Shown: positions 19,228 to 30,791 of the stretch, piece after piece | Position numbering within the stretch: position 1 is the stretch's first letter | Layout: each line of letters opens with the position of its first letter | DNA from: Anaerolineaceae bacterium | Lineage (GTDB): Bacteria > Chloroflexota > Anaerolineae > Anaerolineales > Anaerolineaceae | Direction of reading: 5' to 3' | DNA length: 30,829 nt | NCBI GenBank assembly: GCA_039680295.1 | Contig: JBDKTF010000538.1 | Coordinates: 1-30,829 of the forward strand | Made by a program: the position numbers and the translations under genes | The notes under the pieces: generated by a model | Seen by the model: only the letters and a program-made list of their open reading frames with translations | What the model was told of the DNA's origin: nothing | Databases searched by the model: none

Positions 19228-19416
19228 GAATGCGCCCCTGCATTCTCAAACCATCAGGATTGATTTTTGTTCGAACTGAATACTCTAAATAACCATTATA
19301 TATGAATATTCGAACAAACCATGTTGTTTTGATACCCAATCATTATAATTAAATTGGTTGATCGTGATCCCTTTGTATTTTTCGAATCGCATTGCGGCAT
19401 GACAGGAGACCAGCCA

Positions 19417-20922
19417 ATGAAAGGTCGCAATCCGTTTTTCCTGATCACCGGGATGATTTTGATGCTTGCCGGATGTTCCACGCCTGCGCCAACCATCTCC
19501 ACATCAACCCCGGCAGCGCTTTCGACCGTTCATCCGATGGAAGTTACAACCGCCTCGCAAATATTTCCCAATCCATTGCTGGATAAATTTGAAGAGGAGG
19601 GAAATTCTTACCCGCAAGCCACCCGTTATCAGCTCTCCTGGCAGGTTTCACCCGCAGAAAGTACGCTTCATGGAGAAGAATCCATCCAATATACCAATAC
19701 AGAAACAGTCTCCCTGACAGATTTTTACTTGCGGCTGTTCCCCAATACATCGTTCATGGGCGGGGAAATGATCGTAAGCGACCTCACAGTCAACAATATT
19801 CCCGTAGATGCCGAACTACGATTGGAAAACAGTGCGCTCTGGTTTCCTCTCGATCCTCCCCTCAAACCGGGTGAAACGCTCTCGATCACATTGACCTACG
19901 ATGTTTCCATTCCCACAGATAATTCCGCGGGATACGGCGAACTGGCAAATATGAATGGAATTCTCTCCCTTTCAAACACTTACGCATTCGTTCCGGTTTA
20001 CGATGATCAGGGATGGAATGTCGAAGTCGCACCGATGATTGGCGACCCGGTGTATGCAGACATTTCCTTCTTTCAGGTGGATATTCAGACCGATCCGCAG
20101 CAGCAGGTGGTCGCTTCTGGTTCATGTGAATTGCTTTCCAGGGGGCATTGGGGTTGTGCCGCGGGTCCGGTGCGAGATTTTATTGCCGTACTCAGCAATA
20201 AATTTGAGATGGAAACGGACCAGATCGACGACATAACCGTTCAAAGCAGTTTCCTGCCCGGTGAACGCGCCGGCGGTGAAACCGCATTGACCACCGCGCT
20301 TGCCGCAGTCGCAATCTTCAATGATCTTTTCGGAGAATATCCATTCCGTGAACTGGATGTGGTCGAGACCCCCAATCTCGCCAGCGGCATTGAATATCCC
20401 GGTATGGTGGTTCTGGCGGATCGGATATACACTGATGAAAATGTACTCGAAGCGGTGACCGTTCACGAAGTGGCGCACCAATGGTGGTATAACCTGGTCG
20501 GCAACGACCAGGTGGATCATCCCTGGCTGGATGAAGCGCTTGCGCAGTACACCACAATACTGTATTACGAAAAACGATACGGAGAGTCTGTTGCCTCAGA
20601 ACTGAAAGAGATCCTTCTCCAGAGCCGGTATCAAACTGTCCGAGGAACCGCTGACGATCTGCCGGCAGGTCTGCCTGTTCGAGCCTATTCTGAACGCCAA
20701 TACTCACCAAGTGTTTATGCCAGAGGTGGATTGTATTTTGACGCTCTCCGGAAAGAAATCGGAGATGCAGCTTTCTTCGATTTCCTGCGTGAATACTCCT
20801 CCCGCCACCGCTACGGAATCGCAACCCCCGAATCGTTTTTGGATACACTGGAAGATATCAGCGGCAGCCGTCATGAAAATCTTTACCGTCAATGGATCAC
20901 CGGCGAAGACACGCTTCCTTGA
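19417..20922 (+). CDS. M1-family zinc aminopeptidase, predicted lipoprotein
   Basis: Lipobox LAG-C, GIEYPG, HEVAHQWW plus WLDEA (HExxH-18x-E), VYARGG. Start placed at ATG 19417 (CAGGAG RBS). Confidence 0.9.
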   Translation: MKGRNPFFLITGMILMLAGCSTPAPTISTSTPAALSTVHPMEVTTASQIFPNPLLDKFEEEGNSYPQATRYQLSWQVSPAESTLHGEESIQYTNTETVSLTDFYLRLFPNTSFMGGEMIVSDLTVNNIPVDAELRLENSALWFPLDPPLKPGETLSITLTYDVSIPTDNSAGYGELANMNGILSLSNTYAFVPVYDDQGWNVEVAPMIGDPVYADISFFQVDIQTDPQQQVVASGSCELLSRGHWGCAAGPVRDFIAVLSNKFEMETDQIDDITVQSSFLPGERAGGETALTTALAAVAIFNDLFGEYPFRELDVVETPNLASGIEYPGMVVLADRIYTDENVLEAVTVHEVAHQWWYNLVGNDQVDHPWLDEALAQYTTILYYEKRYGESVASELKEILLQSRYQTVRGTADDLPAGLPVRAYSERQYSPSVYARGGLYFDALRKEIGDAAFFDFLREYSSRHRYGIATPESFLDTLEDISGSRHENLYRQWITGEDTLP

Positions 20923-20947
20923 CGAAAGCGGTGCCCTCAGATATACT
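20919..20947 (+). promoter_or_regulatory. Sigma70 promoter for rplY
   Basis: TTGACG-17 nt-TATACT; the -35 overlaps the peptidase stop codon. Confidence 0.8.
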
Positions 20948-20975
20948 AAACAGTCCGTCGGGTTTTGATACGTTT

Positions 20976-21105
20976 TAGGCTGTGTAGCGGATATCTACCT
21001 GCCTGATCATAAATGGATCACCCATCGGAAACAATATTCACCGGCGCAAGCCGATTTACACGCAAAAGAGCGAAGGTAACCCGATATCCGGGGTGAGAGG
21101 CGCTC
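20976..21105 (+). ncRNA. Candidate structured cis-regulatory 5' leader of rplY (5S loop E-like hairpin plus kissing loops)
   Basis: Hairpin 20976-21005 with loop CGGAUAU; GNRA hairpin CGGC-GCAA-GCCG at 21042-21053; hairpin 21068-21105 with a 6x6 purine-rich internal loop and a terminal loop containing AUAUCCG. Folded by eye. Confidence 0.55.
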
Positions 21106-21119
21106 GAAGGATGGATAAG

Positions 21120-21761
21120 ATGGAAAAAATTGTTCTTCATGCCACACACCGCTCCGTCACCGGTAAAAAAGTTGGCGTTTTACGCCGTGAAGGCAAGCTT
21201 CCGGGTGTGCTTTACGGTCACCACATTGACCCAACCCCCATCACGCTGAACCTGCGCGAAGCCACCAAAGTGCTGTCCTCCCTTACAGGATCCAGTCTGG
21301 TGACCGTTGACGTGGAAGGTAAAGAATTTGCCGCACTGGTGCGTGAAAAGCAGCGCAACTACATCAAGAACATTCTGCTGCATGTTGACTTCCAGGCAGT
21401 TTCACTGACCGAAAAGATCCGCACCGCCGTCAGCATCGAGATGGTAGGCAACTCTCCCGCAGTCAAGGATTACAACGGTATCATCGTCCAGAGCCTGTCC
21501 GAACTCGAAGTGGAATCCCTGCCGCAGGATCTGCCCGAACGCATCGTGGTGGATATCTCCTCCCTCAAGGAAATTGGTTCCAGCATTCTGGTGAAGGATA
21601 TTGTCTTTTCTGATAAAGTTCAGGTGCTCACCGATGGTGCTGAGGTGGTCGTTGTGATCACTGCCGCGAAGGAAGAAGCAGAGGTCGAAGCAGCCGCTGC
21701 CGCCGAACCCGAAGTGATCGAAAAAGGCAAGAAGGAAGAAGAAGAGGCACAAACCAAGTAA
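21120..21761 (+). CDS. rplY: 50S ribosomal protein bL25 / general stress protein Ctc (long form)
   Basis: LRREGKLPGVLYG, LHVDFQ and an acidic C-terminal tail. Start placed at ATG 21120 (AAGGA 8 nt upstream); ATG 21111 is an alternative. Confidence 0.95.
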   Translation: MEKIVLHATHRSVTGKKVGVLRREGKLPGVLYGHHIDPTPITLNLREATKVLSSLTGSSLVTVDVEGKEFAALVREKQRNYIKNILLHVDFQAVSLTEKIRTAVSIEMVGNSPAVKDYNGIIVQSLSELEVESLPQDLPERIVVDISSLKEIGSSILVKDIVFSDKVQVLTDGAEVVVVITAAKEEAEVEAAAAAEPEVIEKGKKEEEEAQTK

Positions 21762-21790
21762 TTGGTTTTTCTTCGATCCGAATGACGATC

Positions 21791-21820
21791 AAGCACCGCA
21801 GATTACAATCTGCGGTGCTT
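21791..21820. terminator. Bidirectional terminator between rplY and the Nudix gene
   Basis: 13-bp perfect stem AAGCACCGCAGAT/ATCTGCGGTGCTT between convergent genes. Confidence 0.85.
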
Positions 21821-21840
21821 TCGTTTAACCAGATTTATAT

Positions 21841-22440
21841 TTATTGCAGCAGGGCATCGATCAGGCGTACGGTCAATGCGGCGCTGGCGCCCCACAGTAC
21901 TTCACCGTCATAAGGCTGGTAGTAAATGACCTTATGCCATTTCTGATGATAGTGGTCCCGCACTTCGCGATTTGCGGGATTCGCCAGCCAGCGCAGAGGG
22001 ATGGTAAATATCCGCGAGACTTCCGCCGGTTCGGCTTTCAACGCCAATTGCGCGGGAATCGTACCCACATAAGCGTCAATTTGAAAGTGCGTGATCAATT
22101 TCATTTTTCCCAGGCTGCCCAGAATCCGAATTTCTGGAATGGGCGCCCCGATCTCTTCATGCGTCTCACGCAGTGCGGTCATCTCCAACGAGGCATCGGT
22201 TGCTTCCCAGCTTCCACCCGGAAAAGCCACCTGTCCTTTGTGGTCTTGAACGGTCTCAGTACGGCGAATGAATAACAACTGCCATTCGCCCTCCTGACGG
22301 AGAAGCGGCATCAGAACGGCTGCCGGTCGATAGGATTCTCCCTCCATCTCCAGAACCAGAGGATCAGGTTCCAGACTCCGCAGTCGATCGCGGATTTGCT
22401 CTTCTGAGAGGTCATCCAACCTATCGATCTGATATCCCAT
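21841..22440 (-). CDS. Nudix hydrolase, CoA pyrophosphatase subfamily
   Basis: AAVLMPL, H.GQVAFPGG (NuCoA motif), TALRETHEEIG Nudix box, LWGASA. Start placed at ATG 22440, directly after the trmI stop. Confidence 0.88.
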   Translation of the reverse strand: MGYQIDRLDDLSEEQIRDRLRSLEPDPLVLEMEGESYRPAAVLMPLLRQEGEWQLLFIRRTETVQDHKGQVAFPGGSWEATDASLEMTALRETHEEIGAPIPEIRILGSLGKMKLITHFQIDAYVGTIPAQLALKAEPAEVSRIFTIPLRWLANPANREVRDHYHQKWHKVIYYQPYDGEVLWGASAALTVRLIDALLQ

Positions 22441-22441
22441 T

Positions 22442-23296
22442 TCACCGTCCTGTATCATCCGGGTCCAAACCGCCTTCTTCATAAAGTGCTTCGGATTCTG
22501 GAGAATCCGCCAGAATCACCGGGCGCCCAAAGATGAGAAAACCCGTATGCGCCACCATGCGGTCTGCCGGGCGGAATCGTTCTGGTTCCGCCTTGTAATA
22601 CCGCAACAACACTTCCACCACATCGATAAAAGCGAATTGTTCACGCCGTAACGCGTGCAGCAGCAGTATGACCTGATTGGTCGTTGGAAGAATGCTCCCG
22701 AAAAAACCACCCGGCTTCAACGCAGCACGCACCTGCGCGGTGTAATCGTATGGATTGGGAACATCCAGAAAAAGCGCATCCACATTGGTCTCATCAAATC
22801 CATCTCCAATGTTCTTCAATTTAAATGTCACCCGATCAGCCAATCCCAATCGTTCGAGATTGGTCATCGCCAGTTTCTGAAATTCTGGTCGCTGCTCATA
22901 CGAAGTGACACGCCCTTCTGTTCCCACAGAAAACGCCAGCGCTGTCGTCATGGCGCCAGAGCCTGTACCTGCTTCCAACACATGCTGTCCCGGACCAACC
23001 CCGAGACGCAATAGAAGGTATCCAATGTCCTTGGGATAGAGAATCTGCGTATTCCGCGGTGTACTGCGCAGCACATCACCCAATGAGGGCTGCAGCAGGA
23101 AAAACGGGCTGCCCATGTGGCTGAACACCTGGCTACCCCAGGGCTTTCCGATCAGATCGTCATGTTTTAGTATTCCCCGGTGAGATTCAAACACTGCTCC
23201 GGGTTTAAGGGTAATAATAAAATGCTTATGGCGAAGTCCGACCAACTCCGCCAGATCGCCTGCCTGCGCGTTTGTTCCATGAAGATTCCAGGTCAA
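22442..23296 (-). CDS. trmI: tRNA (adenine(58)-N1)-methyltransferase
   Basis: LIGKPWG, TQILYPKD, VLEAGTGSG, FLDVPNP, HTGFL; TTG start with GGAG RBS. Confidence 0.93.
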   Translation of the reverse strand: MTWNLHGTNAQAGDLAELVGLRHKHFIITLKPGAVFESHRGILKHDDLIGKPWGSQVFSHMGSPFFLLQPSLGDVLRSTPRNTQILYPKDIGYLLLRLGVGPGQHVLEAGTGSGAMTTALAFSVGTEGRVTSYEQRPEFQKLAMTNLERLGLADRVTFKLKNIGDGFDETNVDALFLDVPNPYDYTAQVRAALKPGGFFGSILPTTNQVILLLHALRREQFAFIDVVEVLLRYYKAEPERFRPADRMVAHTGFLIFGRPVILADSPESEALYEEGGLDPDDTGR

Positions 23297-30715: not shown

Positions 30716-30791
30716 TGGGGTGGGTGATGGGGGTCGAACCCACAACCCTCGCATCCACAGTGCGATGCTCTGCCATTGAGCTACACCCACC
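30716..30791 (-). tRNA. tRNA-His (GTG), including G-1 and an encoded CCA
   Basis: Cloverleaf: acceptor GTGGGTG/CACCCAC, D arm GCTC/GAGC, anticodon arm TCGCA-CTGTGGA-TGCGA, T arm GTGGG-TTCGACC-CCCAT, discriminator C pairing with G-1. Confidence 0.98.

Follow-up and report, generated by a model that had tools for sequence, protein, structure and literature searches.

A conserved hairpin in the rplY leader of Anaerolineales resembles 5S rRNA loop E and is a candidate bL25 operator

Does the messenger RNA for ribosomal protein bL25 carry, in the Anaerolineales, a copy of the site that the protein binds on the ribosome? The question is raised by the leader of rplY in an Anaerolineaceae bacterium (NCBI GenBank assembly GCA_039680295.1), on a stretch of 30,829 nucleotides (nt), positions 1 to 30,829 of the forward strand of contig JBDKTF010000538.1, which we call the window. 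Directly before the gene (21120–21761, + strand), the leader contains a core hairpin (21068–21105, + strand) in which a basal stem, GAGCG/CGCUC (21068–72/21101–05), and an apical stem, ACCC/GGGU (21079–82/21091–94), flank a 6 × 6 internal loop with AAGGUA (21073–78) opposite GAGAGG (21095–21100); the terminal loop, GAUAUCCG (21083–90), is variable among relatives. An earlier note on this DNA, made from the letters alone, had likened the hairpin to loop E of 5S ribosomal RNA (rRNA), the binding site of bL25, and proposed a two-state leader in which free bL25 binds its own message. Its description of the hairpin is correct in every letter and coordinate. The loop E mimic stands as a candidate autoregulatory element, conserved across the order, covarying, and always before rplY, while the proposed kissing-loop switch is not supported.

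Is the hairpin a genuine RNA structure? Thermodynamic folding alone is uninformative for this leader: folded as a single sequence, the full leader is unexceptional (z = -1.23), and the hairpin, absent from the minimum-energy structure, is present in the centroid structure. An unexceptional fold is what one would expect if the resemblance were due to chance or to an annotation artifact, with no functional RNA behind it, but the comparative data refute this explanation, to which we assign a negligible probability. We gathered rplY loci via the protein, not via the motif, from 40 relatives of the same family and order, and fetched 30 loci. The strands GARGGUA...GAGAGGC lie directly before the Shine–Dalgarno sequence in 27 of them. 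Two of the other three are members as well, one with a 45-nt apical insertion (G015) and one cut by a contig end, with the 3′ half still visible; the last, from family f3, has no motif.

Little or no variation is seen across relatives in the two internal-loop strands and in the three pairs (ACC/GGU) that top them; the remainder of the stems changes in a compensatory manner. The basal stem occurs as GAGCG/CGCUC, GGGUG/CACCC, GAACG/CGUUC, and GAGUG/CACUC, and the apical stem as CCC/GGG, CCU/AGG, CCA/UGG, and CCG/CGG; the sequence of the terminal loop is unconstrained, and the apical insert ranges in length from 5 to 48 nt. In an alignment of 42 sequences (A2), pairs are formed in 93.5% of the cells, and covariation is scored at 0.386, as against 0.177 for shuffled alignments (0/500 reach 0.386) and at most 0.113 when the pairing partners are slid. 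G-U pairs occur at several positions and are compatible with the + strand only. Of 142 distinct versions, 130 have a core of the AGGA/GAGG type that starts 0 to 2 nt past the basal stem; the motif itself served to find most of these versions, and the count is biased accordingly. Fixed loop letters, covarying stems, and a free terminal loop together make the pattern of a protein-binding RNA. With its conservation and covariation across the order, its single copy per genome, and its fixed place before rplY, the hairpin is almost certainly a real RNA motif. The leader shows what marks the class of autoregulatory ribosomal protein leaders at the level of sequence, that is, a conserved structured RNA in the 5′ untranslated region (UTR) with covariation.

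Two other identities were considered and discarded. The compensatory changes and G-U pairs, which fit a + strand RNA helix, rule out a leader peptide or a minus-strand element, and the lack of a U-tract downstream of the hairpin rules out a transcription terminator. Several variants of the hairpin deserve mention in their own right. The 45-nt apical insertion of G015 (L286, C1:1434840-1435060, minus strand), in which the motif is intact, resembles an extra hairpin, and expanded apical domains recur, with several matches in the order spanning 55 to 62 nt. Variants of the loop itself read GGUG/UUGAGG in G025 (L282) and ACGGUA/AAGAGG in G031 (L284), and in G033 (L283) the loop is closed by a G-C pair rather than by A-U. 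In two lineages (L014 and L284), a change of the position equivalent to G98 to A co-occurs with a change of A79 to G.

How closely does the internal loop copy loop E? The window's own metagenome-assembled genome (MAG; 621 contigs, 89% complete) contains no assembled 5S rRNA gene, and the comparison was made with the 5S rRNAs of 20 relatives. The loop E strands of these relatives are CCGAUGGUACU / GGGAGAGUAGG, and all 20 molecules read ...CCGAUGGUACUUGG... / ...GGGAGAGUAGG...; the strands GAUGGUA / GAGAGUA, which in bacterial loop E pair noncanonically at seven positions in a row with a Watson–Crick helix on either side, are the same loop E as that of Escherichia coli, for which we used the strands of 1DFU (printed in PMC1920249). 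Against the relatives' 5S rRNAs and against 1DFU alike, the two leader strands match at 6/7 and 5/7 positions, the same count that the earlier note had given. The leader shares with 5S rRNA (E. coli G72–A78 / G98–A104) the topology of a 5′ strand, a short helix with a loop, and a 3′ strand. It retains, in E. coli numbering, the equivalents of the pairs G75-A101, G76-G100, U77-A99, and A78-G98, as well as G102. Four of the seven noncanonical loop E pairs are therefore identical, the GGUA/GAGA core being intact as first described, and a Watson–Crick helix follows directly after the loop at the position of helix IV.

The leader departs from loop E at three positions: it has A or G in place of U74, G in place of U103, and C in place of A104, such that an ordinary G72-C104 pair stands in place of G72-A104; and helix IV, which in 5S rRNA reads CUU.../...GG with G-U pairs, has ACC/GGU as its counterpart in the leader. 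Judged by these alignments, the half of loop E adjoining helix IV appears to have been copied exactly, and the other half replaced by purine–purine oppositions. The 5S covariance model (RF00001) finds no match in the leader at E values up to 10, and the element is thus a mimic, not a 5S gene or a fragment of one.

How widespread is the motif? We scanned an exact pattern for the two loop strands over one genome per species from about 185,000 prokaryotic species. The pattern was found in at least 119 stretches, and all 80 of the titles listed name Chloroflexota, nearly all of them Anaerolineae, Anaerolineales, or Anaerolineaceae; the matches include Leptolinea sp. HRD-7, Thermanaerothrix solaris, Brevefilum fermentans, and MAGs of Bellilinea and Longilinea. 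In 118 of the 119 matches listed, the motif ends 14 to 29 nt before the start of a bL25 gene on the same strand, and in the remaining one the fetched locus ends before the gene. We then turned to a covariance model (R1; 43 positions, 10 pairs) built from 42 training sequences, the window included. In the window's own genome, R1 has a single match, at 21065–21108 (57.5 bits, E = 1.6e-12), a score that is partly there by construction because the window is in the training set. The window carries every element by which R1 is defined: GARGGUA-ACC / GGU-GAGAGGC, two covarying stems, and an end 0 to 2 nt before the rplY Shine–Dalgarno sequence.

With membership of the Anaerolineales assigned by record titles, 102 of the 151 genomes sampled from the order carry an R1 match, always one per genome, and they fall in 13 of its 18 families; no motif was found in families f4, f13, f14, and f17. 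Conservation and covariation in relatives, without which the earlier idea was to be given up, are thus both present, with both stems covarying among the members. Outside the order the model finds nothing: 0 of 147 sampled genomes in the rest of the class and 0 of 138 in the phylum outside the order, or 0 of about 285 sampled Chloroflexota genomes outside the Anaerolineales overall, in searches that, like the one within the order, used stricter filters, scored part of the first-look candidates, and can let weak variants escape. We also looked directly at the sequences upstream of rplY in 28 loci from the class's other orders and saw no such hairpin in them. One locus from another order of the class (L252, in genome G053) has GGTGAGAGGCG abutting the rplY ATG, with no matching 5′ strand or hairpin; this could be what is left of the 3′ strand of the operator, now serving as a ribosome binding site, or a coincidence.

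What would such a copy do at this position? On the ribosome, the minor groove of loop E is widened and holds bL25, which also touches the major groove of the adjacent helix IV and reads mainly shape. We propose that the hairpin at 21068–21105 is probably a translational operator of rplY that is bound by bL25 through mimicry of 5S loop E. Its internal loop and the first three pairs of the apical stem would imitate the loop E/helix IV junction, that is, the ribosomal binding site of the protein. When bL25 is in excess of free 5S rRNA, it would bind the leader hairpin, and the bound protein would hinder the binding or accommodation of the 30S subunit, because the hairpin ends 1 nt before the Shine–Dalgarno sequence and 14 nt before the AUG; less bL25 would then be made. 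The three departures from loop E (U74 to A/G, U103 to G, and A104 to C) probably weaken the site, such that 5S rRNA would outcompete the mRNA, and an imperfect copy of the rRNA is usual for operators of this kind. A steric block or trapping of the 30S subunit by free bL25 would be the simplest mechanism, following the logic put forward for E. coli rplY (PMC4408793; PMC10931766). The operator is favored by a motif that is conserved, occurs once per genome and always before rplY, and combines covarying stems with an invariant internal loop; moreover, the product of the downstream gene is precisely the binder of the rRNA site that is copied. Binding by bL25, repression, and steric competition are what we infer from these features.

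Several observations weigh against this interpretation. Three of the seven loop E pairs differ, and the half of the loop proximal to helix V is not copied. The motif is absent from five families of the order, and some members of the order have altered loop letters (the G025 and G031 variants described above). The Shine–Dalgarno sequence is not paired with the hairpin and is thus not sequestered, so that repression must be steric, which is an assumption. Furthermore, the operator of bL25 in E. coli is unlike loop E, and mimicry is therefore no rule for this protein.

Some of these features could also be accommodated if the hairpin aided the expression of rplY without being bound by bL25, as a stabilizing or standby structure or as the site of another factor, with the likeness to loop E stemming from the general stability of purine-rich loops. 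Modules resembling loop E or the sarcin–ricin loop recur in many RNAs, the Shine–Dalgarno sequence is unoccluded, the hairpin abuts it at a fixed spacing in nearly all members, as a standby site or enhancer would, and the accessory hairpins upstream are suggestive of stabilization at the 5′ end. However, a purely structural role would not fix 12 loop letters and three adjacent pairs across the order while the rest of the stem covaries. The motif, moreover, precedes no gene other than rplY in any genome searched, and it is hard to reconcile a general role in expression with a downstream gene that encodes exactly the binder of the copied rRNA site. We therefore consider this explanation unlikely, and the bL25 operator remains our preferred reading.

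How does the leader compare with known systems? The earlier note knew of no described bL25 leader in this lineage and suggested a comparison with Rfam. Rfam 15, searched against 20850–21250 at gathering thresholds and at E values up to 10, contains no match to the leader; the search returned one chance match to a small nucleolar RNA (snoRNA) model (E = 2.9) at the start of rplY. Our literature searches found no bL25 leader described in Chloroflexota. The established precedent is E. coli, whose autoregulation of bL25 had been invoked correctly: the protein represses translation of its own mRNA, probably because it competes with the 30S subunit (PMC4408793; PMC10931766). Outside E. coli and close relatives that have the short protein, no feedback control of bL25 is known, and the known features of bL25 leaders are confined to species with short bL25 (2024 review, PMC10931766); the search of Eckert and Weinberg only refound the same motif, RF03131 (the L25-Gammaproteobacteria leader). 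RF03131 is likewise a hairpin operator in the 5′ UTR before a monocistronic rplY, and the presumed logic is common to both. It has, however, no match in sequence or structure with the Anaerolineales leader, and its best scores in the whole genome, 15.4 and 15.1 bits against a threshold of 34.1, lie on other contigs. It goes with a short, one-domain L25 and with an unusual GAGA(G) element that resembles a Shine–Dalgarno sequence (PMC4408793; PMC10931766), whereas the window has a 213-aa two-domain protein and an ordinary Shine–Dalgarno sequence, GAAGGA. The gammaproteobacterial rplY operator is, according to its authors, unlike loop E (Aseev, Bylinkina & Boni 2015; PMC4408793).

Other operators of ribosomal proteins work on a like principle. 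The Anaerolineales rplY leader appears, from its sequence and its variation, to belong to a well-known kind, the rRNA-mimic autoregulatory leader of a ribosomal protein. Members of this kind include the S8 site in the spc mRNA and the leaders regulated by L1, L20, and S15. In each, a section of the protein's binding site on rRNA is reproduced in the mRNA leader, usually with imperfections, next to the ribosome binding site (PMC4408793, discussion). They differ from the present case in protein, RNA motif, and lineage, and the leader has no Rfam match to any of these elements.

Is the leader also a two-state switch? It had been proposed that the terminal loop kisses the loop of an upstream hairpin and that the pairing spreads so as to destroy the bL25 site, giving two alternative states. 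The sequence features behind this proposal exist. The loop AUAUCCG (21084–90) is exactly complementary to CGGAUAU (20988–94), the 7-nt loop of upstream hairpin 1 (20976–21005, + strand), which is predicted in the minimum-energy fold and is specific to the window's species-level clade; the complement is even longer than first described, at 8 nt (20988–95 with 21083–90). UACCU (20996–21000) is also complementary to AGGUA (21074–78), as had been pointed out. The 8 nt form a perfect complement between two predicted hairpin loops, and a complement of 7 nt is reached in only 4 per 1,000 shuffles of the window leader; with the UACCU/AGGUA extension the duplex has an energy of -14.2 kcal/mol. A relative of 95% identity (L289) keeps both loops and upstream hairpin 1.

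A kissing-loop or two-state leader should, however, have a complement that is conserved or covaries among relatives, and this one does neither. In 26 relatives, the longest complement between loops is 3 to 5 nt, in none of them below 8 per 100 shuffles. The 80%-identical relative (L290) has no upstream hairpin 1, an apical loop that reads AAUCAAG, and no complement longer than 5 nt, and in five relatives among the first 60 listed the leader extends only about 17 nt upstream of the core hairpin. The sole loop substitution in L289 (G21090 to A) breaks a pair without a compensating change. Words of the form UACCY, which could pair with the invariant AGGUA, are not enriched in 82 leaders (4 found vs. 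7.4 expected), and the complement partly reflects one shared hexamer, the palindrome GATATC, which occurs in both loops. A forced alternative fold has an energy of -44.7 kcal/mol as compared with -49.8 kcal/mol for the hairpin state, and is thus predicted to be 5 kcal/mol less stable, under an energy model that gives loop E no bonus. Hence, when the relatives' rplY upstream regions were checked for covariation, the two stems of the core hairpin covaried and the loop–loop pair was not conserved; the complement is found in the window and L289 and is absent from L290 and the 26 further relatives. We regard alternative states of this kind as improbable. The switch is at most a very young, lineage-specific addition, and it is improbable that the window's species-level lineage recently gained a partner hairpin that pairs with the apical loop of the operator (over 8 nt, or 7 nt in L289).

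The two close relatives used here came from a protein database search, as a scan of metagenome contigs gave none above 65% identity. L290 has an additional open reading frame (ORF) of 185 aa (L290:871-1428) between the M1 peptidase gene and rplY that is absent from the window and L289. Its product is acidic, with a hydrophobic C-terminal segment, and has no Pfam match on record; the ORF ends 72 nt before rplY, which is why L290 is without upstream hairpin 1.

How is the core hairpin embedded in the locus? In the window, rplY is monocistronic, with an M1-peptidase gene upstream and a convergent NUDIX gene downstream; the order M1 peptidase, rplY, NUDIX (convergent), and TrmI-like methyltransferase (window 19354–23296) is common to L289 and L290. 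The gene encodes a two-domain bL25 of the CTC/TL5 type (213 aa; PF01386 and PF14693), which is matched by bL25 chains in the PDB, such as Thermus TL5 (1feu, E = 3.7e-21). Its N terminus (MEK...) agrees with that of relatives in an alignment. Gene callers on close relatives use an upstream in-frame ATG that corresponds to 21111 instead of 21120 (217-aa products P0001 and P0002). The alignment with about 150 relatives and a Shine–Dalgarno sequence at the right distance point to the MEK... start at 21120. This sequence, GAAGGA (21106–21111, + strand), begins 1 nt past the hairpin, and its AAGGA (21107–11), the likely Shine–Dalgarno sequence of the earlier note, stands 8 nt ahead of the ATG.

The consensus-like promoter that had been reported is also present (20919–20947, + strand), with a -35 element TTGACG (20919–24), a 17-nt spacer, and a -10 element TATACT (20942–47) that together match 10 of 12 consensus positions. 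Transcription would accordingly be expected to start near 20954, and the leader would be about 166 nt long. A strong and well-conserved promoter, TTGAC-N17-19-TAnnnT (mostly TAAAAT), lies ahead of rplY in 82 of 135 relatives, and in these 82 leaders with a recognizable promoter 21 to 133 nt separate the -10 box from the hairpin. Relatives' promoters (L002–L149) are followed by a short start region that often contains TCG; the window has TATACT as its -10 element and a leader far longer than that of most relatives. Metatranscriptome runs yielded two 151-nt contigs only, both on the rplY coding region at depth 2, and zero on the leader.

Between the promoter and the core hairpin, a second upstream hairpin, CGGC-GCAA-GCCG (21042–21053, + strand), is capped by GCAA, the GNRA loop that had been noted there, and is followed by an A/U-rich linker (21054–21067). 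A hairpin of the form CGGY-loop-RCCG occurs within 45 nt upstream of the core hairpin in 42 of 135 relatives, and a stable fold (≤ -5 kcal/mol, in the 45 nt upstream of the core hairpin) occurs in 87% of leaders versus 53% of shuffles; the linker between the accessory and core hairpins is 73% A+U. The accessory hairpin is optional, because 5 of the first 60 leaders listed are without any upstream hairpin. The upstream hairpins and the loop–loop complement in the window are lineage-specific additions outside the conserved device. Elsewhere in the window, a transfer RNA gene (30719–30790, minus strand; 66.8 bits) is the sole Rfam match at the gathering threshold.

What would the finding mean? 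If the interpretation as a bL25 operator is correct, this leader would give the two-domain (CTC/TL5) form of bL25, which is widespread, its first operator, and would be a clear case of rRNA mimicry for this protein. It would also provide a natural RNA, compact at about 40 nt, with which to study the recognition of loop E by bL25, and in which the three natural departures from loop E serve as a built-in mutational series and the loop-letter variants within the order serve as a natural one. Should the partner hairpin of the window's lineage prove to be a recent gain after all, it would represent an added layer of tertiary or alternative-state structure that tunes bL25 binding or ribosome access atop an rRNA-mimic operator. 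The motif is a clean marker for the annotation of Anaerolineales genomes and a candidate for a new family in Rfam. Sludge and digesters are rich in Anaerolineales, most of which are uncultured, so that any regulatory element found in the order is new information.

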